Source: a virus (taxonomy: Duplodnaviria > Heunggongvirae > Uroviricota > Caudoviricetes > Schitoviridae). Taken from it: DNA of 64,000 nt. Below, in pieces: positions 6,653-60,600 of this stretch (positions are counted from its first letter, which is position 1; every line of letters begins with the position of its first letter). Position numbers and translations under genes: made by a program. The stretch lies in the IMG/VR virus record IMGVR_UViG_2595698411_000001, positions 37,241-101,240 of that record. One strand, written 5' to 3'. The notes under the pieces are model-generated. The model saw only the letters and a program-made list of their open reading frames with translations. It was not told the DNA's origin and did no database searches.

Positions 6653-7081
6653 ATGACAAGTAAAAAAGCACCTTTACTAAAACAAGTACGACTAATCGTA
6701 GCAGGAGGCAGAGACTTTAACGATGCAACGCTTATGCGTGACTCTATTGAAGAGTTTCTAGCAGAGCTTGACTTCAATGACCTAGAGTTTGTTCTAGGTG
6801 GAGCACCCGGAGCAGACAAGCAAGCGCAAGAACTAGCGGAAGAAGAAGCTTTACCGCACCTAGTTATACCTGCAGCCTGGTACGATATGACTTCACCTTG
6901 TGTACGCAGACAGAACAGCCATGGCGAATACAACGCACTGGCGGGCATGAAGCGTAACATCAAGATGGCAGAAAAAGGTACCCACTTGATAGCCTTCTGG
7001 GATGGCAAGTCCAAAGGAACCAAAGACATGATCGACCAAGCCAAGAAGCGTAACTTGGTGGTGAAAATCATCAACTACTAA
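6653..7081 (+). CDS. SLOG/DprA-like Rossmann-fold protein (YpsA/DUF2493-like)
   Basis: VRLIVAGGRDFND...FVLGGAPGADKQAQELA...HLVIP resembles the GGxxGxD nucleotide-binding signature of DprA/LOG/SLOG proteins; 142 aa. Confidence 0.4.
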   Translation: MTSKKAPLLKQVRLIVAGGRDFNDATLMRDSIEEFLAELDFNDLEFVLGGAPGADKQAQELAEEEALPHLVIPAAWYDMTSPCVRRQNSHGEYNALAGMKRNIKMAEKGTHLIAFWDGKSKGTKDMIDQAKKRNLVVKIINY

Positions 7082-7896: not shown

Positions 7897-9219
7897 ATGA
7901 ACCGTATAGAGCAAAGAAAAGCCTTTGATGAAGCCTTGGCCGCCATGTCGGTCAGTTCCAGTCCTTACTTTAAAGACTATGTGTACTACCTGCACTTAAT
8001 TGCTCTATGCAAAGTGAATTTTAGAGAAGACCTGCAAGCACCTGCAGGTGTCTCTTTTTCAGGCTATGGGTACATTCTTCACATAAACCCTTTGCAGTTT
8101 AATAAACTAGGGATTCCTCATACTCTGGGTGTCTTAAAACATGAAATGGAACATATTTCTCTAGGGCATTTAATCAGGGTAGAAGAACGAGACTTTCGTA
8201 AATTTAATTACGCTGCTGATTGTGCGTTAAATCAGTATATTCAAAAAGACCATTTACCTACATGGGTAATACGACCAGAAAACTACCCTAACAAAGAAGC
8301 CATAAAACATCCTCTCCAAACCGCAGAATTTTACTACGACATGCTAGAAAACGAGGATATGGAAGATGAACAAGAACCACAAGCCGGTAGTGGACAAAGC
8401 GGTGAGCAAGAAGGAGAGAATGACGGCACTGACGGTGATACAAGTCAAGGGCAAAAGCAAGGCCAGTCCGGTAACTCCTCTGAAGATGCTTCTGGTAACG
8501 GTAAACTGGTAGACGACCATGATGTCTGGAAAGAGGGGCAAAATGCAGATCCCGACGCTGTAAGAGAAGTCACTAAAAAAATGGTAGAGAAGGCAGCAGA
8601 AGCTACTACCAAATCTAGAGGTAATTTACCTGCCAATTACAATCAGATAATTGACAACTTATCCCGAGGAAAAGAAGTATCTTGGCAAAAGGTCGTAAAA
8701 AACATTATCGGCAGTAAAAGAGCTAATCGTCGTCGCACTATTAAAAGACGTGACAGACGTAACCCTGGCGCTGAGTGGATAAAAGGCAAAATCGTTAATC
8801 GAATATTTGAACTAGGTGTTATCTCCGACGTTTCTGGTTCAGTAAATGACAACAACCAAAAAGAACTTTGGGGAGAGGTGATCAACGTAGCAAAAACGTT
8901 TGAAACGTCTTTATCCCTAGTTCAAGTGGACACCCAACCTTGTCCGGTTGAAACCTTAACACCTTCTACCACTATGATAAAAAGAAAGGCTTGTGGCGGT
9001 ACCATTCTTCATCCTGCTATTGAGCAGTTTGCCCGCGATAAAATAAAGCCTGACTGTTACCTAGTCACCACTGATGGTTATCTTTCAACCCACGACGTAA
9101 ACAAATTCTTAGAGCCTAATGTTCCTGTTATCTGGCTAATAAACACTGGCGGACAAGTTATGCCAGAAATGAACAAAGGCAAAATGCGAGCAATTCTTTT
9201 AAAAGGCGGCAAAAAATGA
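7897..9219 (+). CDS. VWA-domain protein with N-terminal HExxH metallopeptidase-like domain (DUF2201-like)
   Basis: HEMEHISLGHL is an HExxH motif. The C-terminal DVSGSVND is a VWA MIDAS DxSGS motif. There is an acidic Gly/Gln-rich linker. Confidence 0.65.
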   Translation: MNRIEQRKAFDEALAAMSVSSSPYFKDYVYYLHLIALCKVNFREDLQAPAGVSFSGYGYILHINPLQFNKLGIPHTLGVLKHEMEHISLGHLIRVEERDFRKFNYAADCALNQYIQKDHLPTWVIRPENYPNKEAIKHPLQTAEFYYDMLENEDMEDEQEPQAGSGQSGEQEGENDGTDGDTSQGQKQGQSGNSSEDASGNGKLVDDHDVWKEGQNADPDAVREVTKKMVEKAAEATTKSRGNLPANYNQIIDNLSRGKEVSWQKVVKNIIGSKRANRRRTIKRRDRRNPGAEWIKGKIVNRIFELGVISDVSGSVNDNNQKELWGEVINVAKTFETSLSLVQVDTQPCPVETLTPSTTMIKRKACGGTILHPAIEQFARDKIKPDCYLVTTDGYLSTHDVNKFLEPNVPVIWLINTGGQVMPEMNKGKMRAILLKGGKK

Positions 9220-10523
9220 ATATAAACGAAGCAGTTGAACTTATTGAAGATGCTGATGAAGTAGGTCATGTACCTTTACTTATCGGTGTTCACGGTATCG
9301 GTAAATCTCAAGCACCTAAAGATTACGCAAAGCGTAACAACATGTATTTTGAGCCCCTTATTCTTTCTTTGATGGATACTGGCGACATGCTAGGCCTACC
9401 AAAGGAAAAGACCGTAGGGGGTTTGTCTTCTACTAACTGGTCAGCACCTACGTGGTTCACTAATATCGCAAACGCTGCTTGGCCACAGAATTTTGAACTA
9501 GTGGACCTTCAGTTTAACGACCCAGACTTCCAAAAGACTGCCCTGCAGTATATGGAAACAGAAGGCGTAAACCGAGCGGCTTTAAACGAAGTTTACTGCA
9601 AGTATTACGAAGTCCCTAACGACCGTTTAAGACTGCTCCGTCAAGACAATGTTACTTATAAGAAGGCAAAACGCAGTCTTCTTAACCTGGATGAACTAAA
9701 CCGTGCACATAAAGAAATTCTTGACGCCGGGCTGCAGCTTATCCTAGATCACCGTTTACACGCCCACGAACTTCCTATTGTTAATGGCAAAGAGACATTA
9801 ATAGTGGGTGGTGTAAACCCTGCTGGTGGCGACTACTCTGTAGGTGACTTTGACCCTGCATTTATAGACAGGATCTTAGAAGCCGTAGTAGAGCCTGATT
9901 TAAAAACCTCTATCGATTATTACCGAAACATTAACGTTGAGCCGGTCATTATCGATTTTCTTCAAGAGCACCCTTCAAAGCTGCACTTCTGTCCTGAAGA
10001 CGGTTCTAAAGGTACCTCACCAAGAACGTGGGAGCGTGTAGACCAATACTTAAAAGCAGCAAAAGCAACTAAAAAGTCAAAAGAACGCATCACTCGTTAC
10101 CTTAAAAGCAGCTTAGGTACTTCTGTAGGTATACAGTTTATGGCGTTTTACTCTGACTACGCCTCTGCTTTTAGGTACGACGATTTAGTCGCAGAGCTTA
10201 CTGATATTGTCAACAACAACCCACAACTAGGGAAGCAAGCTCAAGCAGACCTGATTTCAGAAAAAATAGCGTCTTTAGAATCCGTTAAAAGAATGGATTT
10301 TGCAGACTCCTTTATCAAAAACGCTTTCAAAGAAAAGCCCAAGACCGACCCTGAAGTAGCGCTTGTTTACTTTTATGCTCTGCCGTTAGAAAACTTGGCA
10401 GCTGTACTTAAAGCTCTACAAACAGAAGATGTAGTAACGTACGCGCAATTAGCCAAAGTGGACAAACAGCACAACAACAAAAAGCTGTTCATGAAACTAG
10501 TGGGCTATTCCGTAGACAAGTAA
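9216..10523 (+). CDS. AAA+ ATPase (MoxR/CobS-like), partner of the VWA protein
   Basis: Walker A LLIGVHGIGKSQ. The start overlaps the stop of the VWA gene. Confidence 0.6.
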   Translation: MNINEAVELIEDADEVGHVPLLIGVHGIGKSQAPKDYAKRNNMYFEPLILSLMDTGDMLGLPKEKTVGGLSSTNWSAPTWFTNIANAAWPQNFELVDLQFNDPDFQKTALQYMETEGVNRAALNEVYCKYYEVPNDRLRLLRQDNVTYKKAKRSLLNLDELNRAHKEILDAGLQLILDHRLHAHELPIVNGKETLIVGGVNPAGGDYSVGDFDPAFIDRILEAVVEPDLKTSIDYYRNINVEPVIIDFLQEHPSKLHFCPEDGSKGTSPRTWERVDQYLKAAKATKKSKERITRYLKSSLGTSVGIQFMAFYSDYASAFRYDDLVAELTDIVNNNPQLGKQAQADLISEKIASLESVKRMDFADSFIKNAFKEKPKTDPEVALVYFYALPLENLAAVLKALQTEDVVTYAQLAKVDKQHNNKKLFMKLVGYSVDK

Positions 10524-10551
10524 TTCAATCTCAACAAAGTAAGGAAATACC

Positions 10552-12561
10552 ATGCATTTTGGTGATTTTAAACAAGCGATACAACAACAGTTCAAGACTA
10601 TGAACCCTGAAGCAATGTTTGTAGTCGACGTAACAAAAGAACAGCTGTGGGATACGTATCTTGCGTCGTTCCCTGAAGGTTCTAACCCAATTTACCGTGA
10701 GCGTACCGAACACGACTGTAACTGCTGCAAACAGTTTATCCGCAACATCGGTGCACTAGTTTCTGTTGTCGACGACAAAGTAGTAAGCATCTGGGACATC
10801 GATATTGACGGTGCGTACAAAGTAGTTGCTAATGCGATGAAAGAGCTGATTCTATCAGCGCCTATCAAGCAAATTTACCTTAACGACTCTGCAAAAGTCG
10901 GTACAGACCACAACTTTGAAGATCAAGGCGACAAAGTGCGTCAGTGGGATCATTTCTTCTTAGAAATTCCTTCAAGCATGACGATGCGTAAAGACCGTAT
11001 TGCTACACGCGTAGGTCAAGTTAACACAAACTTTTCTACAACTACACGAGCTCTTACTTCTCTAAGTATGAGCGCTTGTGCGACTGTTCGTGACTTAATC
11101 ATGCAAAACAGTCTTTATCGCGGTGAAGAGCACTTAGACAAAGTAAATGCGTTTATGAACACTCTTCGCGAGTACCGCAGTCTTGAAACAGATGAAAAAC
11201 GCACTTTATTCTGCTGGGTTCACGCAAAGCAAAACGGTATTGCATCAACTTTCCGTAATTCGGTTATCGGCACTTTAATTGATGATATTTCTGAAGGCTT
11301 TGACCTAGAAGACGCTGTAGCCTCATTTGAGTCAAAAGTTGCGCCTCATAACTACAAACGCAGCAAAGCGCTTATTACCCCTGCGATGGTCAAAAAAGCA
11401 AACGAAACGATCCAAGAACTAGGTATCGAAAGTGCACTGCACCGTCGTATGGCTAAACTTAGCGACATCACAATTAACAACGTACTCTTTGCAGACGACT
11501 CTGTTAAAGAAAGTATGGGTGTTCTTGATGTGCTTAACTCTCAAGTTAAAAACAAAACGCCTAAAGAGTTTAAAAACGTAGAAGAAGTGTCTGTTGAGAA
11601 ATTTATCAAAGATATTCTTCCTAACGCGACTTCTATGGATTTATTCCTAGAAAACGAACATTTGCCAAACTTCGTTAACCTTATTACGCCTGCAGATGCC
11701 GATGCACCTAACATTCTTAAATGGGATAACAACTTCTCTTGGTCTTACGTATCGGGCACTACTGATTCGGTAAAAGAGCGAGTGAAAAAAGCTGGTGGTA
11801 ATGTTAGCGGTGACCTTCGTTTGTCTCTTGCGTGGCATAACGGCGATGATCTAGACCTTTCGTTACGTCTTCCTTCTGGCCGTATAGTGTATTACGGAAA
11901 CAGCAGAGACTCTGTTACCGGCGCAAACCTAGACGTTGACATGAACGCAGGTACAGTAGACGATGAAGTAAACCCTGTTGAAAACATCGTTATCCCTAGA
12001 GCAGCTAATATGCCTAAAGGTATTTATACAGCGGTTGTTCACAACTTTACTTCTCGTGACAGTAAAAACCCGGGCTATGAAGTAGAGTTTGAGTTCTTAG
12101 GTAAAATAATGACGTTTACTCAAGAACACCCTGTACGTCAAAACCAAAAAGACGTTGTAGTAGAGTTTGAATACAACGGTACTGACGTACGTGTATTATC
12201 ATCGTTACCGTCAACTACTCGATCAAAAGAGCAGTGGGGCGTGTCTACTCAGAACTTTGTTCCTGTAGATTCTGTAATGTTGTCTCCAAACTACTGGGAC
12301 GACCAGAAAGTCGGCAACAAGCATTACTTCTTTATGTTGAAAGAATGTGCTAATCCTAATCCTGTGCGCGGCTTGTATAACGAGTTCTTGTCTAATGAGT
12401 TACAAGAGCATCGTAAAGTATTTGAAGTCTTAGGTGCTAACCTACAGGCCGAATCAACGCCTTCACAACTAGCGGGGATTGGTTTCTCTTCTACCTTGAG
12501 AAACTCTGTCATCTGCCGTGTGAAAGGTGCCTTTAACCGTACCATCAAAATCAAGTTTTAA
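10552..12561 (+). CDS. large hypothetical protein (669 aa)
   Basis: Long uninterrupted ORF with no motif I could recognise. Confidence 0.6.
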   Translation: MHFGDFKQAIQQQFKTMNPEAMFVVDVTKEQLWDTYLASFPEGSNPIYRERTEHDCNCCKQFIRNIGALVSVVDDKVVSIWDIDIDGAYKVVANAMKELILSAPIKQIYLNDSAKVGTDHNFEDQGDKVRQWDHFFLEIPSSMTMRKDRIATRVGQVNTNFSTTTRALTSLSMSACATVRDLIMQNSLYRGEEHLDKVNAFMNTLREYRSLETDEKRTLFCWVHAKQNGIASTFRNSVIGTLIDDISEGFDLEDAVASFESKVAPHNYKRSKALITPAMVKKANETIQELGIESALHRRMAKLSDITINNVLFADDSVKESMGVLDVLNSQVKNKTPKEFKNVEEVSVEKFIKDILPNATSMDLFLENEHLPNFVNLITPADADAPNILKWDNNFSWSYVSGTTDSVKERVKKAGGNVSGDLRLSLAWHNGDDLDLSLRLPSGRIVYYGNSRDSVTGANLDVDMNAGTVDDEVNPVENIVIPRAANMPKGIYTAVVHNFTSRDSKNPGYEVEFEFLGKIMTFTQEHPVRQNQKDVVVEFEYNGTDVRVLSSLPSTTRSKEQWGVSTQNFVPVDSVMLSPNYWDDQKVGNKHYFFMLKECANPNPVRGLYNEFLSNELQEHRKVFEVLGANLQAESTPSQLAGIGFSSTLRNSVICRVKGAFNRTIKIKF

Positions 12562-12570
12562 GGAACAAAC

Positions 12571-12954
12571 ATGTTTGAAAAAGCATCTCGAATTAAACTG
12601 CGGTTCTCTACCCCAAAAGGCGAGATTACCGTAGAGCGCCTGTGGGATTTACCTCTTAAATCTCCTACAGGCATGAGCCTTGACGCTTTGGCTATCCAAA
12701 GCAACAAGAAAATTAAAGAGTCTGAAGAGTTCAGCTTTGTTGATGAAGTTCAAAAAGACTCTGTTGAGTGCCTGCGCTTAGATATTCTTAAGCACATCAT
12801 TCAAGTTAAGCAAGCTGAAAATAAAGCTGCGCGTGAAGCTAGTGAGATCAAGGCCGAGCGTCAACGTTTGTTAGAAATCATTGCTAAGAAGAAGCATGAA
12901 GCTGACGCTGACTTAAGCATTGAAGAGCTTAGCAAAAAACTAGACAGCCTGTAG
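12571..12954 (+). CDS. hypothetical protein (coiled-coil C-terminus)
   Basis: 127-aa ORF. Confidence 0.5.
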   Translation: MFEKASRIKLRFSTPKGEITVERLWDLPLKSPTGMSLDALAIQSNKKIKESEEFSFVDEVQKDSVECLRLDILKHIIQVKQAENKAAREASEIKAERQRLLEIIAKKKHEADADLSIEELSKKLDSL

Positions 12955-12961
12955 GTTTATC

Positions 12962-13249
12962 ATGACTAACGACGAGAAATTGCAGGTTGTTGATGCGTAC
13001 CTTAAAGGCGAGACTATCGAAATGATGGACTCCCGCGGTCAATGGAAAGAAGTGTGCTTTAAGCAAAACAATCCTATAATCAACAATCTTGCGGTTTTTC
13101 GCGTTAAACCTGATTTTGTAGAGGCTCTTTACGAAACTTATGTAAAACAACTAAAGCTGCAGGGTACACCACCCTTAATATTTGACGAGTTTAAACTTGT
13201 TTACGGCGTAATAGAACCTTACATCAAAATGGAGGCGAGTAATGATTAA
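12962..13249 (+). CDS. hypothetical protein
   Basis: 95-aa ORF. Confidence 0.45.
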   Translation: MTNDEKLQVVDAYLKGETIEMMDSRGQWKEVCFKQNNPIINNLAVFRVKPDFVEALYETYVKQLKLQGTPPLIFDEFKLVYGVIEPYIKMEASND

Positions 13250-13514
13250 GCAAGACTTTGGATGGGCAGTAAATGCTATCAAAAAAGGCAAAAAAGCAAC
13301 CCGATCGGTGTGGGATGATAAAGACACTTTTATCTTCCTAGTTCCGGGGTCAAGTTTTAGCGTTAACGATTCTCCATTATCTAATGTTTATCCGCAAGGC
13401 ACTAAAATTGACTATACTCCGCATATCGACATGAAAACCGGAGGTGGTCCTGTAACACCATGGTCACCAAAGCAAGTAGACCTTCTTGCAGAAGACTGGG
13501 AACTAGTGCCCTAA
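13242..13514 (+). CDS. DUF2829-family small protein (Tad2-like candidate anti-Thoeris sponge)
   Basis: FGWAVNAIKKGKKATRSVWDDKDTFIFLVPG...YTPHIDMKTGGGPVTPWSPKQVDLLAEDWELV matches the DUF2829 signature as I remember it: (A/E)xKxGKKxxRxxW ... MKT ... PW..SQ.D.LAEDW. Confidence 0.5.
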   Translation: MIKQDFGWAVNAIKKGKKATRSVWDDKDTFIFLVPGSSFSVNDSPLSNVYPQGTKIDYTPHIDMKTGGGPVTPWSPKQVDLLAEDWELVP

Positions 13515-13532: not shown

Positions 13533-14033
13533 GTGAAAGTTGATTGGAAACAAGTAGCCAGTTCTCCTGGCTATAAAAGTCTTAAAGCTGCTCTTGTTAG
13601 AGACATTGGTGGTAACCGCCGTAACATGTCAGGACGCAGCAAAGAAGAAATGTACGCCCGGTTTAACTGGATTATTGCTCGTGCCCAGCATTACGCGCAT
13701 GTGCAGAATAGGCCTTTATCCAGCATCTTAAACGAATGGGAAGACAAAAGATCTTCTTGGTGGTTTGGGCACTACGCTGAATCATCGCACCCTAAACTAG
13801 GTTCAGGAAAGCCTAAAAACGTAAAACCTCAGTCAATGCGGAATTACTACAAAACTGATCCTTGGTTGAGGCGTAAGTCTCCTAAAGAACGTTTTAAGCA
13901 AATACGCAACACTAAGACTAGAGAGGCCAAATTTAATAGAGAGCACAGGCTAGGTAAAAAACCTAGGTGGTCTCCAGACCGTAAACGTATAAACGCTACG
14001 TACAGACGAATCAAACGACAAGAAAATCTGTAA
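13533..14033 (+). CDS. hypothetical basic protein (Arg/Lys-rich C-terminus, likely nucleic-acid binding)
   Basis: 166 aa. The C-terminal 70 residues are strongly basic. Confidence 0.5.
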   Translation: MKVDWKQVASSPGYKSLKAALVRDIGGNRRNMSGRSKEEMYARFNWIIARAQHYAHVQNRPLSSILNEWEDKRSSWWFGHYAESSHPKLGSGKPKNVKPQSMRNYYKTDPWLRRKSPKERFKQIRNTKTREAKFNREHRLGKKPRWSPDRKRINATYRRIKRQENL

Positions 14034-14609: not shown

Positions 14610-14622
14610 ATGTGTTGTTAGT

Positions 14623-14657
14623 CGACAACTTAGCCGCTGTTAGCGGAAGTCGTTTTT
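14623..14657 (+). terminator. rho-independent terminator
   Basis: Imperfect hairpin CGACAACTTAGCCGC-tgtt-AGCGGAAGTCG followed by TTTTT. Confidence 0.5.
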
Positions 14658-16225
14658 AGGTACACGGTGTACTAAGTGGGTTCAATTCCCGCCGTGTGTA
14701 ATTTGTGTGCAGGCCTGCGGGCAGATTACATACGCTTGTCTGGTGCAAGGTTAAGAGGTAAAACTACCGGTTCGAGTCCGGTCGCCTAAAAGCGCAACCC
14801 AATTAAACAAGACAACGCGGCAGCATGTCGCCGCTCCGCCCATGCTGCGTTGTTAGTGCCGGTGAGGTGACGAACTCACTGTAATAAATCGTCCCTGTGC
14901 GCAACTGCTAGCGCAAGGCACACAGGCCAATCATCCCTTTATGGGGTGTTTTGGAGATACGTTTACAGCAACTTGTTTTTAACCAGTTGTTATTATGTGG
15001 GCCATAGTCAGTAGACGTATCTGCCAAAACATATTTGAACTAGGATCAGCCATGCCTGAAAACAAAAAGCTTTATCCCGGTATACACACGCCGTGCTATC
15101 CAGGCAAGTTTGTACTATCAAAAGACGAAGTCTCAGGATACATCCTTACAAATCCTATGATGGTTTCTATAGCTGCACATCAAATTAATAGCTTTATACG
15201 TAACTGTATAGCTGTCAAAGGAGACATTAACAATGAATAAATGGATCAGCGTTAAAAATAAGCTTCCTCCAAAAAACGTTACCGTCATTGGCAAGTTTCC
15301 TAGCATGTATCGCAATGTTCCTTATCACGTATCTGACTGCCATTATGATGGTGCTTGGAAAATGCACGGCAATGACTCAGTGCACGACACGTATGCCAAT
15401 GATCCTGTTGCGTGGCAACCGATGGAAGACTCCGATGACCATACTGATTAGAGTAAAACGCAAATGCGATGGAGAAACCGGAGTCGTTAAAAACGCTAGA
15501 GGAACTAGTGACGGTTTAGAGTGGTTAACGGTCGTGTTTGACAGAAACTTGCCAATAGCCCGAAACGTACGGCTATCTCATTTTGAAATACTTTCTGTAG
15601 AACAGAGCAAATGAATAAAACACTTTAGGGTGTTTTGTAGAGGTGTCTGCATTCTATTAACCATAGTTATGCTGACAGTCACAAATAAGCCGCAGGCACT
15701 TCTAACAAAATACCTTTTACGGCGCTTGGAGAAACCGACGGGTGGATCTGGTACAGAATCGATTAACGAGGTTCGAGTCCTCGGAGCGCCAACTTTTACA
15801 ACGTATCGTTCCTGCCGATTGCCCATCTATTGAAAATGACGCAGTTAAATCTTAAATCTGTACGAGATGGGTACAGACAGCATCGTGAGAGATGCAACGA
15901 TACACCTTTTTCCATCCCCAACGTGAGCCGCGCTGTATCTAGTGGTCTTACTCCTATTCGCGATAAGGGTTTAAGAAAGCTAGAATACACGTACATGGGA
16001 AGGCTCAGGTCCAGTTAATTACTTGACTAGGAGGTTCGAATCCTTCCTTTGGGGACCACTTTTTCAAACGGGATAGTTCTCTGCAGCTTTGGTTGCTGGT
16101 GCATCAGCGCCTTAGCCAAGAAATTGGTATGAGAAGAAAACACCGTCTTATTTATTGTGAAATGCAAATAGCGTAAGTAAGCCTGTGGAGTGAGAGTCGA
16201 TATCTCCTATCCTGTCCCCTTTAAC

Positions 16226-28991: not shown

Positions 28992-29249
28992 ATGAAAAAA
29001 CGACTAGCGCTTGCAACAGCTGCATTGCTGTTTGCATCAACCGCTCTTGCGACCGAAAAACCGGTACGGCACTATGAAGTAGATGCTTGGGGTTTTGACC
29101 CTGACATTTACGAATTTACCCCAATCGGCCATAACCACATGACTTGCCTGATTTTAGTATCAGGCGGTGACACTTCAGCAGGCATTACGTGCTTCCCTAA
29201 AGACCGTGTACCTAAAGTCAAAGTTGAAGAGGTAAAAAATGAAAGCTGA
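28992..29249 (+). CDS. secreted small protein
   Basis: MKKRLALATAALLFASTALA signal peptide. Confidence 0.5.
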   Translation: MKKRLALATAALLFASTALATEKPVRHYEVDAWGFDPDIYEFTPIGHNHMTCLILVSGGDTSAGITCFPKDRVPKVKVEEVKNES

Positions 29250-29775
29250 ACTAGTGCTGCACAGCAATGACGACCTCCTTTGTGTAAACGCTGCTCGTGT
29301 TTCAATGGACAAAGAGTCAAAACTATTTACTTTCCGTAAAGATAAACCAAAAGGCTCAGATGAAGGTCTGGTACATTATCTAGCGGACCATCGCCATTGG
29401 ACACCTTTCAGCCATGCGCGTTTTACAATCGAAGCTAACGACGTATTTATTAACTTACTGAACGTAAACCCAGAAGATATCGCTTCTGCAGTGTGGAGAA
29501 CTGATCCTCTAAAAGGTAGTTTTAAATTCCGTACATCGTTGTTTGGTTGGGCAAACCTGATTAAAAAAGGTTTTGTGTTCGATCATTACGTTGGTGCAGT
29601 AGTAAATGTACTTAAACAGCATGTACCGCACTCTCTTAAAGCACTACTGCCAGAGATCGGTGACAACGTTAAATCGCGGTTCCCAGTATGGGAAACTGAA
29701 GACGAAACAGATCCTGCGTTTATTGACGTAACAATGCGCGAAACTATTCCTATTTTTATCGCACGTCAACGGTAA
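29239..29775 (+). CDS. thyX: flavin-dependent thymidylate synthase ThyX, N-terminal part (5' exon) with an in-frame ~100-aa insertion
   Basis: VNAARVSMDK...DEGLVHYLADHRHWTPFSHARFTIEA aligns to ThyX ...AARVS...HRVGNIFRHSSTLEHLYYNFEI and T. maritima HETPFEHIVFTFHV. The C-terminal IPIFIARQR aligns to T. maritima APIFVARQW. The ORF stops where the RHR motif should follow. Confidence 0.65.
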   Translation: MKAELVLHSNDDLLCVNAARVSMDKESKLFTFRKDKPKGSDEGLVHYLADHRHWTPFSHARFTIEANDVFINLLNVNPEDIASAVWRTDPLKGSFKFRTSLFGWANLIKKGFVFDHYVGAVVNVLKQHVPHSLKALLPEIGDNVKSRFPVWETEDETDPAFIDVTMRETIPIFIARQR

Positions 29776-29841: not shown

Positions 29842-30507
29842 ATGTTGAAAGATAGAGCCGGCGATCAAGTTACCCGTGTATGTGATGACTGTGGTGATGA
29901 AAAACGAGTCAGTTATTGGAACGTCTACAAGAAAGATGCCCACCGTTGTTATCGGTGCAATAACAAACTGACCAACTTGGGAAAAACGCCCTGGAATAAA
30001 GGGCACAAGCAACAACCCAAGAATGTTGGAAATATCTATACCCACTCAGACGGCTACCCGATGGTGTGGGTAGGTAAGACCAACACAAACCATGGATATA
30101 TGCCTGTTCACAGATTGGTAATGAGCGACCTTAATGGACGCTTGGTTACCAAAGAAGAAAAGGTACATCACGTAAACGGAGACAAAGAGGATTTCAGGCC
30201 TGTAAACCTGTTCCTCTGTAACAATATGTCCCACCACCGAAAAGTACATGCACAGCTTGAAACGCTGTCTATGTCTTTAGTGAAAATGGGGCTTATTGAG
30301 TTTGATCACGCTAAAGGCGAGTACAGCTTAAGCCGCCCTATGGAGAAATTCATAGAGGAAAAACTGGGTGAATTGCTGGAAACCCCTAACGAGAAAGACG
30401 AGGGCAATCAGCAGCCAAGCTCTGCAGAACTTGCAGAGAAGGTTCAACGACTATTCCGTGAGGAAGTACACCAGAAGTCTGGTGGAAGCGCCCAGCCCCT
30501 GCCGTAA
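29842..30507 (+). CDS. HNH homing endonuclease
   Basis: VHHVNGDKEDFRPVNLFLCNNMSHHRKVH is an HNH motif. The N-terminus has Zn-finger-like CDDCGD...CYRCNNK. Confidence 0.7.
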   Translation: MLKDRAGDQVTRVCDDCGDEKRVSYWNVYKKDAHRCYRCNNKLTNLGKTPWNKGHKQQPKNVGNIYTHSDGYPMVWVGKTNTNHGYMPVHRLVMSDLNGRLVTKEEKVHHVNGDKEDFRPVNLFLCNNMSHHRKVHAQLETLSMSLVKMGLIEFDHAKGEYSLSRPMEKFIEEKLGELLETPNEKDEGNQQPSSAELAEKVQRLFREEVHQKSGGSAQPLP

Positions 30508-30571: not shown

Positions 30572-31039
30572 ATGTGGTACAAAATCTACAGACACACAAG
30601 TCCTAGTGGTAAATCATATATAGGGATTACTTCTGAGGATACATATACAAGGTTCAGGAAACACTTACGTAAGGCTAGATTTGGATCTACAACCAATTTC
30701 CATAAAGCAATACGTAAGTACGGTGAAGATTGCTGGCAGTCAGAAATACTGGACGCCTTCTATACTGAGGATAAGAAAGAAGCATACGAAAAAGAGCAAT
30801 CTTGGATTGATTCTGAACAACCTGAGTATAATATGGATTGTGGTTTTGGGTGGAATATTACAGACAGGCGTGGTGACAAGAACCCGATGTATGGGAAATT
30901 GTCAGGAAACGCACACGGGGTCAGCATCAAAGGTGAAATTTTCTTATCCCTCACCTTAGCTGCTGAGCACTTTTCCGTGAATCGAGGAACAATCAGCAGG
31001 TGGATTAAGTCCAGAGAAGACTGTTTTAAACTAAACTAA
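30572..31039 (+). CDS. GIY-YIG homing endonuclease
   Basis: MWYKIYRHTSPSGKSYIGITSEDTYTRFRKHLRKAR is a GIY-YIG motif. AGGAGA ribosome-binding site upstream. Confidence 0.7.
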   Translation: MWYKIYRHTSPSGKSYIGITSEDTYTRFRKHLRKARFGSTTNFHKAIRKYGEDCWQSEILDAFYTEDKKEAYEKEQSWIDSEQPEYNMDCGFGWNITDRRGDKNPMYGKLSGNAHGVSIKGEIFLSLTLAAEHFSVNRGTISRWIKSREDCFKLN

Positions 31040-31504
31040 GTGAACGGGCGGGGAATAACGTACCCCGTCGAAGGTAAAGTTAAACACATGATTGGTACCA
31101 CCTACAATGAGGTGTCACGCAGATACGTAGATGATACACCTGAGTTCTACCATATTGACGAGTGGCGCAGTCGTCCTGACGGTTCGATCAAACAAGGTAG
31201 TGGCGGTATTCACCCTGAAAGCGCAGCAATGTCTCTGTTTGCTAGAGGCCGTGTCACAGCAATGGCTGAAGACTACGATGAAAACATTGAAGCTGGTTTT
31301 GCGCCAGAACAAGTACGCAGTTTGTTGCCACAGAACATGCTCACTAGTTACTACGTCACTGCGTCATTAAACGCGTGGAAACGTGCTTATGACCAGCGTA
31401 TCGACGGCCATGCCCAAAAAGAAATTAACGACCTGGCGCTACAGTGGGTAACAATACTAAACGACTGCCCACACGCCCAAATCTGGAAAGAAATGTTTAA
31501 GTAA
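31040..31504 (+). CDS. thyX: ThyX C-terminal part (3' exon)
   Basis: ...KHMIGTTYNEVSRRY aligns to ThyX RHRIASYNELSGRY. ARSLLPQNMLTSYYVTASLNAWKRAYDQRIDGHAQKEINDLA aligns to the conserved ThyX C-terminal region A.P..Y.T...Y..N.R.L.NF..LR....AQ.EI. Listed GTG start with no ATG. Confidence 0.65.
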   Translation: MNGRGITYPVEGKVKHMIGTTYNEVSRRYVDDTPEFYHIDEWRSRPDGSIKQGSGGIHPESAAMSLFARGRVTAMAEDYDENIEAGFAPEQVRSLLPQNMLTSYYVTASLNAWKRAYDQRIDGHAQKEINDLALQWVTILNDCPHAQIWKEMFK

Positions 31505-53241: not shown

Positions 53242-53408
53242 TTACCGACCTATTCCAGTCTGTAGGCATACTATTCTGCATTCTTATATGTGTAGCAATA
53301 GTAGCCGTAGTAATGTACTTATCGTACATTTTAGGAATAGGTCTAGTAATCGCTGGCCTGCTTTTTGTGATCTACCATATCGTTAGTTTAATGAAACGTC
53401 ATACGTAG
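53238..53408 (+). CDS. small membrane protein (56 aa, 2 TM; not in the supplied ORF track)
   Basis: Translated by hand: MITDLFQSVGILFCILICVAIVAVVMYLSYILGIGLVIAGLLFVIYHIVSLMKRHT*. It overlaps the 3' end of the convergent vRNAP gene by 26 nt. Confidence 0.35.
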   Translation: MITDLFQSVGILFCILICVAIVAVVMYLSYILGIGLVIAGLLFVIYHIVSLMKRHT

Positions 53409-56400
53409 ATGCTTTCAGTAATGAAGGCGTCACGACGTTCATAAAGATATCAGTTGGGCTGTATATGGGGAATACGTTCCCCGGCCCAAGTGATTCTGCA
53501 TACCAATCTTTAGCTAAGAACGACTGTTCGTGTATGCTAGGCAAACCGCCTGCAATACCAGTAGCCATCAAACCTAGTGTCGTTTTAATAAGCCCTCTAC
53601 CGCCGGTCTTAGTAATAATCCGCTGAATACGCTTCACGTATTTAGTGAACATCAAAATACCTACTTTGTTTAGGTACTCTTCAAATCTACCTGACGGCAT
53701 AGCGTAGTTGATATAGTCTTCTACCAGCTCGTATTTACGGTTCTCTTCCGCCCGCTTTAAGAACTCTGTTCTTTCCGCGCCTACCAGACGTTGTCTAGCC
53801 TTATAATCTTTAGGCTTGCCTTCCATCCACCAATTAGGCAAACGCTCTTGTCCGTTGACTTGACGCTGTTCTGACCGCTTTTCCATAACATTTTGAATGT
53901 CACGAGACATTAAGTCTGTAATTTCCAAAAACTCGTTTACCACCTGATACGGCGCAGTGCGCTTAGTCAAAAACAAATAGTCTAGACCTGTTCTAGCCAC
54001 ACTAGGCAAATTCTCTGTTTTTTCGTCAAAGAACCGGCTGATCTTATTAGTGTCACGCACTACCTCAGAAGATAAATCCTCTACCGACTGGTCTAAGCCC
54101 ATCTGTATAAGCTCATGTACGCGACTGCCTGTGATCCTAGTTTCTAGAGAGTTTAACTCTCCTTGCACACGCTTAAGCTCCAATTTAAGCTCATTTTTAC
54201 GTCGAGTGCTTACTACCTTATCGTTTGACCCTTTACGAGATCGAGGCGTATCTAGTATCTTCTTACCTAGCGCTACTTTGATTTCTCTTTCTCGGTTCTG
54301 CAGCTCTTGCTTTCGTTTGAGGTTGCTGTTGTAGGTTTTTATAGTTTTAAAACTATCCACCTGCATAGACAGCACTTCTTTCGGATTATAACCCTTCATA
54401 ACAAGATAAAGTGTATTAGAGAAGAAGTTGCTTAGCGTAACTGTAGGCATTTTCATCAAAATGTTAGTTTTCGCTATTTGAACTACTTCCATCCAAACAG
54501 TTTCAGCAATTCTCGCAGCTCTTAGCAATACGTCAGGCGTTACCTGTTTTAGCAGACCTACATCCGCAATACTGGCCTGGCTATACCCAAAATACATATT
54601 TTTCAAAGAAGTTCTGACAGCTAGTGTCTTATCTTCTCTGCTTTTAATAAACGACTGAAACTCTTTTGGCAGCATGTAGTACAGCTTCCTCATTTCTGGG
54701 TTGCTTACTTCAGGGCCTATCAATGTAAAGTCCGTAAGACCGTCCTTTCCTTTAGTACCTCTTGACCAATTTTCTTTCATGTCCGATCTAAGCGCATCTA
54801 GCACCTTAGCGTTATGCTGAGCAGTCATATCTTTATCGATCAGTGAACCAAAAGACTTGCCCATTACCTCAGAGATGCGCGTATCCTGTTTCAGCAACTG
54901 CTTCTTGGTCTTTTTGTCCATCATGTAGCGGTAGTCGACTACTACGCCTTCTTCGTTAAGCAGCGGCATTAGTCCGTACACGGTATCTTTGAAGTCGTAC
55001 TCGCCTTCTTCCATCTTCTTGATGCGCACTTTAGCTTCACGAGATATTCTGTTTATGTCTCGTGCCGCAGTTTCTCTGATCAAGCTACTAGGGAGGCCTT
55101 CGCCTTCTTTGTACTTCGCTGCAGTGACAGTGGTACCCTTAGATCTCAGCTGGTTAAATCGTACACCGCCGCGTAAACGTTCTGGCCTGCTTGCGCTATC
55201 GGTCACGTAAAGCGCCATAGTTTCGCCAATCTCAGAGCCTGTTTTCTTAACTAGAGTGCCTTTGTACTGAAAGCCTTGCTTCTCCATAGCACTGCGTTCT
55301 TTTAGCGGTGCTACCTCCATCAGGATACCATCATCAAACACTTCACGAGTGTAGCCCATAATCATGTTGCGCTGGTTCTTTTTAAACACCGTCTCTACAG
55401 TGTTTTTACGGAACCCTTCTATTATGTCAGCTACATGTTGTACTGCTTCATAGTCGCGCTTCATTAGGTCTGCTACCAGCGCACGAGGAGCTTTTTCAGT
55501 GTTCTTGATAGCTGTAAGAGTCGCCAGTTCTTCTACAGCCTTAATGACACTAGCTCTTGGGCGCTTGCGGTTACTGCTATGTATACCTTCCGCAATATTA
55601 CGAGCATTGTGATTCTGCTCTGGCGTACCTAAGTGCTTAGCCATATAAATGCCTAAACCTACAGCTTGGTTAGAGTGCCAATTGTAGTTAGTCGAGTCTG
55701 CGTCTTTAAGGGCTCTTTTAGCGGTCTGGATCGCTTTATCTAGTGCATCTTCGTCTGTAAGCAGTTTGCGTATAGTGGCGTTATCAAACACACGTTCTTT
55801 TACCAAACCGGCTTCTGATGCAGCAGTGGCTTTACCGAACAGAGACGCAAGTGCCGTGTCCGCCAATACCGCTGTCATAGCCTCTTCTTCTTCACGAGTA
55901 GGGGCTTCTTTAAACTTACTAAGCACGTTGTCTTTAGTCAGGCCGATCTGCTCGTTACGAAACTTATCAACGTAGCCTGCTTGGAGCGTAAGAAACTCTG
56001 CTACTTTTTGGACAGGCTCTGTCTGGAACAGTCCACCAACAATCTCACGTATAGTACCGTCTGGTCTTAGGCCATAAGAGCTGGCCAAAGCGCCCATTAC
56101 CTTGGTGTAGGTGGGGTTTACCATAGACAAGCCGATAAGCTTTGCACTGTACTTGACACGCCCATACAAGCTGTCAGGCATTTCTTCAAACTCTTTAGTA
56201 GCTAGTTTGCCTATCGTGCTTTCGCTCGCTTTCTGCAACTTTCCTGCTAACGCTTTGTCAGGACTATTCAGAACTAGGTCATACACTCTTGACAAGAATC
56301 CTGGCTTTTCGGACGCCTTGATAGCTGCTTTAGTGTTTATCTCACCCAGCTCAAACGCCAGCTGCACTAACGCGTCATCTACTTTTTGGTTGCGGTTTTT

Positions 56401-57612
56401 GACCGTAAGCTGGCCCGTAATGACGTCTTGTACGAATCCCCATAAATCGTATAAGCGGTCTAGTATGGTTTTAGACCCTGAGGTGTCTTTGACCTTTACT
56501 TTAGACAGTGCTTTAGCAACTAGGGGCTGAGCAATACCCTTAGCCAAAAACTCTTCACGGGTAGTGTTGCTGTTGAAGATGTAATCGTACAGCTTGTTAG
56601 CAAACTCCATTTCTTTTTCTGGGTCTACAGAGTCTTCTGGAGCAGGTAAGAAATCTTCCGGTTTAAGCTGTTTACGGCCTAACTCAACTAATGCGTCTAG
56701 GCGTCTAACTAGTTGGTCACTTTTAACAGTGCCTGCGTTAATGGCGCCAGAAGTCATAGAGTGCACCACTTCTTCCATGTAGATAGAAGCTTCTGATTGC
56801 TGGTTACCTATTGAAGCAGGGTCGCTCTTTATTTTTATATCAATACGAGTCGGACGAACAATACCTTTTGAGGTTTTTGCCTTGTCGTTGATAAACAGTT
56901 TCAAGTCTTCAAAAAACCGTGGCTTCATTTTATCTAGGAGCGCTAAGTGCCCTTGCAGTTCTTTATAGTCAGCCTTTTCGCCGCCAAGTTTATGCACCTT
57001 TTTGAGCATGGCTTTCATGTTCTCGATATTACCGTGCACGTAGCTTTTTTCTTGGTCTTTGTCTTTTAGTTTGAAGTCAGCGCCTGGGGCACTACCTAGC
57101 GCCATGCCTAGGCTTTCTTGCTCGTTTTCAGCAAGACTAAGGTTGTCCAGAAAGTCTCTAAAACCGTCTATTTGAATATAGCGGTTATTCTTAGTCATAG
57201 TGCTGCGTTCGCCGGTAGTCAGGGAGAACGTGTTACTCTTAGGGCGGCCTTTATGGATATAGTGGATACGAACACCGCCATCTACCATTTCCGCTTTTTG
57301 AAACATGGCATTATTGCGGGTGGTGCTGCTTCCGTGTCGGAAACTAAACGTGGGGCCAAAGGTGTCGCTAAACACTTTAGTAGCTAGTTCCCCGCGTTCT
57401 TTTCGAGTGTTTAAGGTAAAGCCTTGAGCTTTTATAAAGTCGTAATCTTTATTCTTGATTGCGGCTTTATAAGCGTACAAACGCTCTAAAGTCTCGTTAA
57501 TAGGGGTACTGTCAACGCCTTCCAGTGTATCGTCTTGAGCCATACGCTCGTATGTCTTGATCCACTCGTTGACAGTATCGTTGAATACTTTAGGGTTTGT
57601 ACAAATAGTCAT
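53383..57612 (-). CDS. virion RNA polymerase (vRNAP) C-terminal domain encoded as a separate ORF (1409 aa)
   Basis: Its ATG lies 7 nt after the TAG stop of the upstream ORF, in a different frame. The size and position match the ~1400-residue C-terminal encapsidation domain of N4 vRNAP, which follows the polymerase domain. Confidence 0.6.
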   Translation of the reverse strand: MTICTNPKVFNDTVNEWIKTYERMAQDDTLEGVDSTPINETLERLYAYKAAIKNKDYDFIKAQGFTLNTRKERGELATKVFSDTFGPTFSFRHGSSTTRNNAMFQKAEMVDGGVRIHYIHKGRPKSNTFSLTTGERSTMTKNNRYIQIDGFRDFLDNLSLAENEQESLGMALGSAPGADFKLKDKDQEKSYVHGNIENMKAMLKKVHKLGGEKADYKELQGHLALLDKMKPRFFEDLKLFINDKAKTSKGIVRPTRIDIKIKSDPASIGNQQSEASIYMEEVVHSMTSGAINAGTVKSDQLVRRLDALVELGRKQLKPEDFLPAPEDSVDPEKEMEFANKLYDYIFNSNTTREEFLAKGIAQPLVAKALSKVKVKDTSGSKTILDRLYDLWGFVQDVITGQLTVKNRNQKVDDALVQLAFELGEINTKAAIKASEKPGFLSRVYDLVLNSPDKALAGKLQKASESTIGKLATKEFEEMPDSLYGRVKYSAKLIGLSMVNPTYTKVMGALASSYGLRPDGTIREIVGGLFQTEPVQKVAEFLTLQAGYVDKFRNEQIGLTKDNVLSKFKEAPTREEEEAMTAVLADTALASLFGKATAASEAGLVKERVFDNATIRKLLTDEDALDKAIQTAKRALKDADSTNYNWHSNQAVGLGIYMAKHLGTPEQNHNARNIAEGIHSSNRKRPRASVIKAVEELATLTAIKNTEKAPRALVADLMKRDYEAVQHVADIIEGFRKNTVETVFKKNQRNMIMGYTREVFDDGILMEVAPLKERSAMEKQGFQYKGTLVKKTGSEIGETMALYVTDSASRPERLRGGVRFNQLRSKGTTVTAAKYKEGEGLPSSLIRETAARDINRISREAKVRIKKMEEGEYDFKDTVYGLMPLLNEEGVVVDYRYMMDKKTKKQLLKQDTRISEVMGKSFGSLIDKDMTAQHNAKVLDALRSDMKENWSRGTKGKDGLTDFTLIGPEVSNPEMRKLYYMLPKEFQSFIKSREDKTLAVRTSLKNMYFGYSQASIADVGLLKQVTPDVLLRAARIAETVWMEVVQIAKTNILMKMPTVTLSNFFSNTLYLVMKGYNPKEVLSMQVDSFKTIKTYNSNLKRKQELQNREREIKVALGKKILDTPRSRKGSNDKVVSTRRKNELKLELKRVQGELNSLETRITGSRVHELIQMGLDQSVEDLSSEVVRDTNKISRFFDEKTENLPSVARTGLDYLFLTKRTAPYQVVNEFLEITDLMSRDIQNVMEKRSEQRQVNGQERLPNWWMEGKPKDYKARQRLVGAERTEFLKRAEENRKYELVEDYINYAMPSGRFEEYLNKVGILMFTKYVKRIQRIITKTGGRGLIKTTLGLMATGIAGGLPSIHEQSFLAKDWYAESLGPGNVFPIYSPTDIFMNVVTPSLLKASTYDVSLN

Positions 57613-57619
57613 GTAGGCT

Positions 57620-60600
57620 CTACTGTTTGCAATGCTTGCTGGCTAAAGCATCTAGTTGATCGATAGTCATATTATTGACAGGTGAGTTAACTCCATTATC
57701 AGGAATTTCCTCATATAAGTCAATTTCAGCATAGTCCACAGGGTTGTCCGGGCCTACGTTGAAAACACCATCGCTAGTGCCTGCCATATGCATTACAGAC
57801 GCCCCTTCGTTCAACGAATCAAACAGTTTTTTTCGTTGTTTGTTTACCTCGTTAGCAAGTTTAGCTGCAGCGTTACGAGACTGGATCATAAAACTAGCGA
57901 CATTAACTTCTGTTTCCCTGTCTACCTTAACCGTAGCTTCTTGATAAGGCGTCTTGCCGCTTTCCGAGAATAACGGAGTGTTTTTAATGTTTCTATCCAT
58001 AGCCTTGACCAACTCGTTTACAAAGCTGTACTGGGCACTAGTTTCAAGAGTAGCTTTATTATAAGCCTCTTGAGCTTCTCCCATGCGCAGCAGATTGGGC
58101 ATAACAGCGTCGTGTATGCTTGTCATATCTCCGCCCATCGCATTGATACTAGCAGCCATAACAGCGCCATCGATGTAGTGTATAGGTACAACTGATCCGG
58201 CTGATATAGCAGCGCTAAGAGCTTTAATCATATGAGAAGTACGAATACTGTTACCTTTACCCGCATCTAGGCGTTTACCTGCCTCAGGGGTTAGGTAGCT
58301 TATAGATGCTTTACGACCTGCGTAAGCGCCGTAAGGAGACGCAGTATCCATGCTGTACACGCCGATAGCACCGTCTTGAGTAAAATCTTCTTCCATCTTA
58401 CTTAAAGGGCCCTTGATTGCTGGCCATTGGTTTAAAGTAGATGTATAGAGCTCTTTTTCCTTTTCTGCAGATACAGGGCCTTCTCTACGAGCTTCTAAAA
58501 GCTTCTCTTCGTAAGATACTTTAAACACCTCAAACATCGCTTTAAAGCCGTCGTTTATAGTGGTTTGCGCTTCAACAAAAGGTTGGAACTCCTTGTTCAG
58601 TACGTTTTCTACTTGCACGCCGTAAGATGCGTCAATCATTACATCTAGGTATTCTCCAAGACTAGCGCCTTTGTTTCCTAAACGGACTTTGTTCATAGGC
58701 ATAGTTCTGATAGCTGCCTGCAACTTACGCAAGTCGGATTTGTCGTCACTGTTAGCGTATGCCGCTAATAACTTAACTAGTGGTTTATCCTTGTCCTTTA
58801 TAACTTTTTGACCTAAGTCAATCTTAGCCAGTTTTGATGCTATGTCGTCCTGCATTGTCCCTTTAAGACGCGTTCTAATAGACTTAATAGACGAAGCGTA
58901 GTTAAACGTCATAAACGGGTACTTGAACAAGTTACGCAGTTCGCTAGATATGCCGCCTTCCGGATCAGCTGAAGGCAATACTTCAGAGACTGCAGACCAC
59001 AAGTCTTTAACGTATTTGTTATCTGACTTAAGCAAAGGAGACCCTTTAGCATTAGTCTTAAGCGCCTTAAAAGAAGTGTTTTTAACACTAGAAGCAAGGA
59101 ACTGATAACTATCTAGGAACTTCTCTAGTCCTCTTTCTTTGTTCTCTTGCAGGCTTAGTACGTTATTCATGCTCGGCACGTCTACTCTGTTAAGAATAGC
59201 GTCTGAGTGCTTGAATATTCCTACCTTACCTAGCCAAGTAAAGAGTTTTCTACCTACAACAGGCATCTGTAAGAGCTTCAGCGCAAAACCGCTAGTTACA
59301 GCATCAAATTCCGCAGTAATAGCGCTTTCAAACTGGCCAGGACTAGTTAAAGAGTCTTCGACAAACTTGAACGCTTGTATGGCGTGGCCTAAGTGTTCGA
59401 TCTCAATTTCTTGCCCGTTACTTAACTCGTAAACACCAGCGTCTAAAAAGGCTTTACGCGCTTTTTTAAGCTTCTTAGGAGTGTTTAAGTCTTTAAGTAC
59501 AGTCTCCGCAAATGTAGCTATGTCTGCGTCTGACTTTTTGTCAGTAGCAAAACCAAAACCTTGCGCAAGCGCGTAGTGAACTAGTGGTGTTACGTCTTTG
59601 CCTTCTACACTAAACCGGTTACCCGTACGCTTGTATGTATTGTTGTGCGCTTTAGGCTGTACAAAGAAACGGTGTAAGTGTTTATAGTTCTGCGGATTAA
59701 TAGTATTGCTGTCCACAAAGAAACGGCCGTTCTTAGAGAAGAAGTAGTTAAACCACATAGACACTTTATTTGTGTCTTTTTCGGTCTGCTTGTTAAGCCA
59801 CTTCAAATGCTCAATTTCTTGCTCGATGTCGCGGTTCTTTGACGCCTGTACTTGCTGCTCTTTATAAGAAAGCTTCATAAATTCGGGAGTAGGATCACCG
59901 TCCTCGTCTTCTACGGCTATGTAACCTAGCAACTTTTTAAGTTTGTCTGCATTCTTCAGCGCAAAACGTACCAAAGACATATCAGCGACCATTTCAGTGT
60001 CCATAAGCTTTTCCATAGCTTCTTTAGACTTGTCAGCAATGCTTAAGCCTAAACGCTCTTTACGGATCTTCTTAGTAGCCTTGTCTTTTTGTTTTTTGGT
60101 CGGGCGAGCAAACAGTGGTTCTTTACGACGCACATCCATATTAGGCATGCTGTTCTCTAGGATATTAGTTATAAAGCTTAAATCCTCTACAGCCTCTTTG
60201 CTTTTGATATTGACAAAGTTAACCACAGCGTCAGAGTCACTAGTTTCGTGCTCGGCCTTGCCTAGTACGTCCCTCGCGAACTGTTTGCTGCTCATTGACT
60301 CTTTAGTCAGCAGATCTTCATTTTTGCCTGCACCGACAGCTAGAGCAATCTGCCCTAGTTCGGTTGTCAACGCCGAAAACAGCTGTGCATCAACGTCGTC
60401 AGCATTCTTGGCTCTAAGGCCCATCAATTTGACGATGTCTTTACCTACGCTGTCTGTAGCAGTCTTGAACAGCAAACCTTTATCCTGCATTAAGCTGATA
60501 GCTTTTTCTGACAGCTCAGACTCGTGCTTACCCAGTATTTGCGCTATCTCTTCTGGCGTCTTGCTGTCTTTGCTCATCAAGAACGCATTATTCTTCACAA

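Follow-up and report, generated by a model that had tools for sequence, protein, structure and literature searches.

A Tad2-family protein with rare pocket substitutions in the Alteromonas phage vB_AmaP_AD45-P1 is a probable immune-signal sponge

The 90-residue protein gp056 of the lytic Alteromonas podovirus vB_AmaP_AD45-P1 belongs, by profile, by sequence matches to solved Tad2 proteins and by predicted fold, practically certainly to the Tad2 family (PF11195/DUF2829), and by analogy with characterized homologs it is probably a functional signal sponge. The family as such and a domain label in RefSeq were already known; what appears to be new from the sequence comparison are rare substitutions in the ligand pocket of gp056, and this pocket variant is to be seen as a lead, not as a finding. 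Tad2 proteins form homotetramers, i.e. dimers of V-shaped dimers, which sequester TIR-made signals at protomer interfaces and thereby block effector activation, and the ligands reported for them comprise 3'cADPR, His-ADPR, N7-cADPR, cUMP/cCMP and cGG.

Results

The tad2-like gene and its product

The gene lies in a stretch of 64,000 nucleotides (the window) whose sequence matches Alteromonas phage vB_AmaP_AD45-P1, as well as the sister isolates P2-P4, with 100% identity. It is part of a compact, co-directional gene array, has a good ribosome-binding site, and shares its first 8 nt with the end of the preceding 95-aa ORF, including the stop codon of the latter (ATGATTAA). The product is a stand-alone protein with a single domain, which RefSeq labels "DUF2829 domain-containing protein" and which is hypothetical in the GenBank records. 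A literature search found neither a published test of gp056 nor a mention of gp056 as Tad2.

13242..13514, plus strand: tad2-like coding sequence, an ATG ORF of 90 codons and a stop codon (locus M610_gp056, protein YP_008126027.1, in Alteromonas phage vB_AmaP_AD45-P1)
13231..13235, plus strand: Shine-Dalgarno-like GGAGG, 6 nt before the tad2 ATG, as read from the sequence

The earlier note on this DNA had recognized a DUF2829 signature in this ORF, and all three motifs are indeed present, namely A9..K14.G16-K17-K18..R21..W24 as motif 1, M64-K65-T66-G67-G68-G69 as motif 2, and P73-W74-S75-P76-K77-Q78-V79-D80-L81-L82-A83-E84-D85-W86-E87-L88-V89 as motif 3.

Family membership and predicted fold

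The note's assignment of the protein to DUF2829/Tad2 held when it was checked in the two ways that the note had proposed, i.e. by a profile search and by comparison of an AlphaFold model with Tad2 structures. Pfam PF11195 "Tad2-like" matches gp056 over profile positions 2-73 of 73 with 79.5 bits (E 2.7e-22; gathering cut-off 25 bits), and PHROG 1048 (E 2.9e-23) and PHROG 872 (E 3.1e-18) match as well, while NCBIfam models gave no match to gp056 or five nearby ORFs. The phmmer matches of gp056 in the PDB are seven distinct sequences, all of them Tad2/AcrIIA7, including ModTad2 (8V3E/9EIB, E 1.3e-15), SptTad2 (8WJD, E 8.7e-12), SPO1 Tad2 (8SME, E 4.5e-9) and HgmTad2/AcrIIA7 (8KBI, E 7.6e-8; 9kzr, E 2.2e-6). 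The AlphaFold2 monomer prediction, made from an alignment of 71 homologs, has a mean pLDDT of 81.9 and consists of an N-terminal alpha1 helix, an antiparallel beta-sheet and a short C-terminal helix (helix 6-14; strands 19-21, 30-34, 37-40, 55-58, 61-65 and 86-88; helix 78-81). In a Foldseek search of the PDB, the top 24 matches of this model are all Tad2 structures (E<=5e-5, TM 0.61-0.74), with ModTad2 (9EIB) as the best match (TM 0.74, E 7e-8), and the next match follows at E 1.6. As the profile match is significant and the predicted fold is that of Tad2, neither of the two outcomes named in the note as speaking against its assignment, i.e. lack of a profile match or a different fold, was found. 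The hydrophobic core and the alpha1 helix motifs are conserved, including the F6/A9/K14/G16/R21 motif that mediates tetramerization in solved homologs.

The family is large. At E<=0.001, relatives of gp056 amount to 2,671 representative proteins in a library of 1.84 billion proteins; a set of homologs that was retrieved separately carries PF11195 throughout. Hadary et al. counted 2,783 Tad2 family members in IMG/VR, and of 50,697 phage records, 238 contain a Tad2 homolog. Among cultured phages, the branch of gp056 comprises the four AD45 isolates only, and the next-best match is 53% identical.

N-terminal extensions of at least 40 aa occur in 75 of the 219 closest Tad2 representatives. Eleven extensions, nine of them N-terminal and two C-terminal, contain a 'DGYxSWSP' motif and are Acb4-like in look, which fits the Tad2-Acb4 fusions that have been reported in the literature. 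In two representatives, P0173 (1603 aa) and P0195 (922 aa), partial Tad2-like stretches are repeated in tandem 8-12 times.

The ligand pocket

In SPO1 Tad2, W25 and W73 make van der Waals contacts with the ligand, N26 and D79 make polar contacts to phosphates and hydroxyls, T78, I63 and T65 contact the adenine, and waters are held by N26, D67, H71, W73, S76 and D79. In HgmTad2, N22 and G23 bind the diphosphate backbone of the ligand, and a W21A/N22A double mutant markedly lowers gcADPR binding. The contact-equivalents of gp056 were mapped onto SPO1 Tad2 by HMMER alignment, with the following result.

SPO1 W25: gp056 W24
SPO1 N26: gp056 D25
SPO1 I63: gp056 M64
SPO1 T65: gp056 T66
SPO1 D67: gp056 G68
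SPO1 H71: gp056 T72
SPO1 W73: gp056 W74
SPO1 S76: gp056 K77
SPO1 T78: gp056 V79
SPO1 D79: gp056 D80

The corresponding codons are found at these positions of the window:

13311..13325, plus strand: W24-D25-D26-K27-D28, the beta1-beta2 loop on one side of the pocket for ADPR signals, equivalent to SPO1 W25/N26 and HgmTad2 W21/N22/G23
13314-13316, plus strand: GAT codon of D25, which replaces a near-invariant Asn
13431..13457, plus strand: M64-K65-T66-G67-G68-G69-P70-V71-T72, a strand and loop with the contact-equivalents M64, T66, G68 and T72
13461..13481, plus strand: W74-S75-P76-K77-Q78-V79-D80, the second pocket wall, made up of a loop and a helix
13470-13472, plus strand: AAG codon of K77, a rare residue like V79, whereas W74 and D80 are canonical

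The Trp/Trp/Asp core (W24, W74, D80) is thus kept, at positions that are 94-100% conserved in a diverse family sample. The beta1-beta2 loop reads WDDKD in place of the usual WNGKG, with D25-D26 where N-G is expected. The 71 first-round homologs all have Asn at position 25. In a query-centred sample of 231 domains the residue is Asn in 200 and Asp in 3, and in a more diverse sample of 101 domains (median identity 37%) it is Asn in 85 and Asp in 2. At position 77, Ser is found in 194 of the 231 and 86 of the 101 domains, respectively, and Lys in 3 and in none. The Ser/Thr residues of the pocket helix (SPO1 S76 and T78, HgmTad2 S90 and T92) are absent from gp056, which has K77 and V79 instead. 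Altogether, gp056 agrees with the sub-family consensus at five of the ten contact positions, and only 19 of 213 members are that low.

The insertion between beta2 and beta5 is about 25 residues long in gp056 and 24 residues long in SPO1 Tad2, and the alignment with SptTad2 contains a gap of about 10 residues in this region. HgmTad2/AcrIIA7 and SptTad2 (PDB 8KBI-8KBM, 8WJC, 8WJD) belong to the same family as gp056 and share the canonical pocket architecture for ADPR signals, but they carry a 35-41-residue beta2-beta5 insertion that constitutes a second pocket for cGG/cGAMP. As gp056 lacks this longer insertion of the CDN-binding Tad2s and shows the gap against SptTad2, a pocket of the CDN type is unlikely.

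SPO1 Tad2 (Gp34.65; PDB 8SME/8SMF/8SMG, 8WJE), the founding member, binds 1''-3' and 1''-2' gcADPR but does not take up cyclic dinucleotides. It resembles gp056 in family, fold and size, its W25, T65, W73 and D79 are kept, and the I63 to M64 exchange is conservative, but gp056 differs by N26 to D25, D67 to G68, H71 to T72, S76 to K77 and T78 to V79, at an overall identity of about 30-34%. The nearest solved relative is ModTad2 (also MoTad2), the Tad2 of a Myroides odoratus prophage with structures in the apo form (8V3E) and with His-ADPR (9EIB). It is of the same length class as gp056 (88-90 aa), has a similarly short beta2-beta5 insertion, is about 33% identical, and shares the W, W and D of the pocket core as well as the C-terminal D(I/L)LAEDW motif. 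It differs in having W-N-G-K-G and Ser at the equivalents of positions 77 and 79, where gp056 has W-D-D-K-D, K77 and V79. ModTad2 binds His-ADPR, plus cUMP/cCMP in a second pocket, and leaves type I Thoeris uninhibited. That the pocket can be retuned within the family is further seen with the pan-Thoeris Tad2_71, which binds N7-cADPR and 3'cADPR, and with the anti-Pycsar Tad2_70.

Natural alleles and selection

Eight metagenomic contigs (L004-L011) carry the same gene block, and three alleles of the protein can be distinguished in this lineage by their beta1-beta2 loop, their second motif and their pocket helix.

AD45, L010 and L011: W-D-D-K-D; MKTGGG; SPKQVD
L004: W-N-D-K-D; MKTRNG; SPKHVD
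L005-L008: W-E-D-K-D; IKLAGG; SPKQTD

Amino-acid identity to the AD45 allele is 89% for L004 and 86% for L005-L008. AD45 tad2 has one and the same nucleotide sequence in the five phage records of the four isolates and in the two independent contigs L010 and L011. K77 and D26 are fixed across the three alleles, position 25 is D, N or E, and further differences occur at positions 64, 66, 67, 68, 78 and 79. A search of IMG/VR and JGI metagenomes for further alleles of the lineage retrieved only relatives of at most 56% identity, which were used as a broader family sample.

The gene is unmistakably under purifying selection. Against L004, 27 codons differ synonymously and 10 non-synonymously, and the pairwise dN/dS ratios are 0.063 (against L004), 0.119 (against L005) and 0.133, values that are approximate because dS is near 0.8-0.95. 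On this background, the alleles vary at 5 of 10 contact-equivalents versus 12 of 80 other positions (odds ratio 5.7, one-sided Fisher p = 0.019); the contact set was fixed beforehand from the SPO1 structure paper, and with three alleles the significance is nominal, so that the enrichment seen in these sequences is suggestive, not conclusive. The pattern fits a diversifying selection that retunes specificity, and it likewise fits a relaxed constraint at position 25 after K77 had taken over phosphate binding.

Genomic neighborhood

According to the original description, the AD45 phages have genes in common with N4-like viruses, but the module order is different, the N4 RNA polymerase II is absent, and about 30 kb of small hypothetical genes lie between the structural and the replication modules. 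The tad2-like gene is inside this block, about 15.9 kb downstream of the start of rightward transcription (at about 34.6 kb of the record), and the first genes for replication and nucleotide metabolism follow about 16 kb further downstream. The immediate neighbors are orphan ORFs:

12962..13249, plus strand: 95-aa orphan ORF (gp055), which adjoins tad2 in all lineage relatives
12571-12954: 127-aa orphan ORF upstream of gp055
13533..14033, plus strand: basic 166-aa orphan ORF (gp057), which starts 18 nt past the tad2 stop and belongs to phrog_24749 of unknown function

The earlier note had taken the location of the gene to be the early region, where anti-defense genes cluster in N4-like phages. 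An early region could not be established, since the module order differs from that of N4, there is no RNA polymerase II (PHROG scans of the upstream genes revealed no homologs, in agreement with the original paper), and a promoter scan was uninformative, with sigma-70 promoter and terminator sites being fewer or no more frequent than in shuffled sequence. Nor is an anti-defense cluster apparent, as none of the 23 neighboring ORFs scanned matches a family annotated as anti-defense.

The syntenic block consists of the genes for a DUF2201 vWA-like protein, an ATPase, a 669-aa DUF8224 protein, the 127-aa and 95-aa proteins, Tad2 and the 166-aa protein. The 95-, 127- and 166-aa ORFs flank tad2 on every related contig on which that flank is present, and they have no match in Pfam or NCBIfam. 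Homologs of gp055 form two clusters only among 5.8 billion proteins. The protein gp057 has a very basic C-terminal half, is co-conserved with tad2, and shows a dN/dS of 0.10 against L004. Homology of the flanking orphans to fusion partners of Tad2 was considered and rejected, as phmmer comparison of seven neighbors with 219 family proteins gave nothing. Likewise, an HMM built from the 11 Acb4-like extensions had no match among the six-frame ORFs of the window, and other domains fused to Tad2 gave nothing significant there.

The three upstream genes at 7897-12561 (plus strand) encode the DUF2201 vWA-like protein (an HNH endonuclease according to RefSeq), the ATPase, which is MoxR-like, and the DUF8224 protein, and the trio recurs on each related contig that extends to this point, namely L005, L006, L010 and L011. 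Further upstream, about 6 kb from tad2, a stand-alone 142-aa SLOG protein is encoded at 6653-7081 (plus strand; PF10686, YspA/cpYpsA-related, 40.2 bits versus a cut-off of 28.2), and it is found at the same place in metagenomic relatives (L005). SLOG domains sense nucleotide signals in ThsA of Thoeris systems, and therefore it is a speculative idea that this phage protein near tad2 could also interact with signaling immunity.

Several other features of the window may be mentioned. An ORF-free gap at 14610-14995, especially at 14655-14800 (plus strand), contains two motifs resembling tRNA T-arms, GGGTTCAATTCCCGCC (at about 14678) and ACCGGTTCGAGTCCGGT (14767-14783), which are split by a long hairpin; the 146-nt stretch at 14655-14800 folds at -50.4 kcal/mol (z = -2.0). 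An unannotated tRNA near 14770 was rejected, as neither ARAGORN nor Rfam predicts a tRNA or tmRNA in the gap, and the stretch may represent a tRNA-like element or tRNA genes that have decayed. Rfam also gives a weak match to a tRNA-like RNA (mascRNA) at 15721-15790 (E 0.066). The annotation of the gene for a ThyX-type thymidylate synthase is divided between 29239-29775 and 31088-31504 (plus strand). In between are genes for two endonucleases, one of the HNH type (29842-30507) and one of the GIY-YIG type (30572-31039), and this looks like an interruption of the homing-endonuclease or intron type. On the minus strand, two neighboring ORFs at 53383-57612 (1409 aa) and 57620-63991+ (>2123 aa) together correspond to the N4 gp50-like virion RNA polymerase, a split that RefSeq annotates as 'potential frameshift' and that the original AD45 authors described as two genes.

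Discussion

By analogy with solved homologs, the approximately 10-kDa gp056 would assemble as a homotetramer, and its inter-protomer pockets would bind and sequester a nucleotide-derived alarm molecule produced by an immune enzyme of the host, so that the captured signal could never switch on the immune effector. As the Trp/Trp/Asp core is intact and highly conserved in the family, the ligand would most likely belong to the TIR-derived ADP-ribose signals of the Thoeris type, held in a canonical pocket that is framed by W24, W74 and D80. The default candidate within this class would be 3'cADPR (1''-3' gcADPR). Sponges of this kind are often active, as 65 of 84 tested members of the Acb2, Tad1 and Tad2 families acted against at least one system, and type I Thoeris was inhibited by four of five diverse Tad2 homologs.

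The earlier note had suggested a sponge for gcADPR. The Tad2-like sponge reading stands, but gcADPR as the ligand does not follow from it, as the family is multi-specific and the pocket is unusual, with Asp for Asn, K77, V79, G68 and T72; for these reasons gcADPR is not a safe call, and we give it slightly less than an even chance. Sequence in general predicts the ligand of a Tad2 poorly, because ModTad2 is near-canonical in its contacts and yet has a different ligand. With four exchanges at contact positions (N to D at 25, S to K at 77, T to V at 79, D to G at 68), the pocket of gp056 appears to be remodeled, and in one parsimonious reading the lineage-specific Lys77 would have taken over phosphate binding, which would have relaxed the constraint on position 25.

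What other explanations exist for such a protein? Fold and sponge mechanism could be the same, and the pocket could have been retuned from gcADPR to His-ADPR, N7-cADPR, cUMP/cCMP or an uncharacterized Alteromonas signal, which we regard as a possible but somewhat doubtful outcome. The nearest solved relative both by sequence and by fold, ModTad2, binds His-ADPR and cUMP, the functional plasticity of the family is documented, and the residues D25, K77, V79 and G68, which are rare, are all at contact positions. The alleles, with D, N or E at 25 and differences at 64, 66, 67, 68, 78 and 79, point in the same direction, as does the concentration of this variation at contact-equivalents on a background of low dN/dS. 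However, the Trp/Trp/Asp core is intact, an identity of only about a third separates gp056 from ModTad2, most tested Tad2s inhibit type I Thoeris, and the nominal three-allele test is explained equally well by a constraint that was relaxed after the gain of K77. A more far-reaching version of a changed pocket, which we consider unlikely, would be that the AD45-type pocket has been rebuilt, with Lys77 replacing Asn as phosphate ligand, position 25 alternating between D, N and E, and positions 64-68, 78 and 79 changing alongside, as an arms-race tuning to an Alteromonas signal, TIR-derived or other, outside the described Tad2 ligands.

It is also conceivable, if very improbable in our view, that gp056 has the Tad2 fold but sequesters no signal any more, be it as a decaying remnant or after recruitment to an unrelated role. 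The near-invariant Asn is gone, and the WDDKD loop is acidic where the pocket would normally be expected to accept a diphosphate, with sponge pockets usually being positively charged. The strong purifying selection (dN/dS 0.06-0.13), the intact ORF with identical nucleotides in all five phage records and two metagenomic contigs, and the retained hydrophobic core and alpha1 motifs argue against such a loss, and by simple charge counting the exchanges D68 to G and S77 to K would compensate for the two acidic residues gained in the loop. Finally, gp056 can hardly be an anti-CRISPR protein of the AcrIIA7 type that inhibits Cas9. AcrIIA7 (8kbi, 9kzr) is indeed in the same Pfam family and is matched significantly, and one phage record labels a homolog (H24) 'anti-CRISPR protein', but AcrIIA7 is the most distant solved relative of gp056, Li et al. 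failed to reproduce an inhibition of Cas9 by HgmTad2/AcrIIA7 or other Tad2s in vitro and in vivo, and Yirmiya et al. hold that DUF2829 proteins are anti-Thoeris and not anti-CRISPR. A signal sponge of the Tad2 family thus is the preferred reading for gp056.

The annotation of gp056 is in itself routine, because the family has thousands of members and RefSeq already provides the domain label. A literature search for published data on Thoeris or CBASS defense systems of Alteromonas found none. If gp056 is active, a marine N4-related Alteromonas podovirus carries a counter-defense against signaling immunity, and signaling immunity would therefore matter in Alteromonas, an ecologically important host. 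For the Tad2 family, the natural allele series with D, N or E at the position of a near-invariant Asn, in combination with Lys77, would be a ready-made experiment on how the specificity of the pocket changes.
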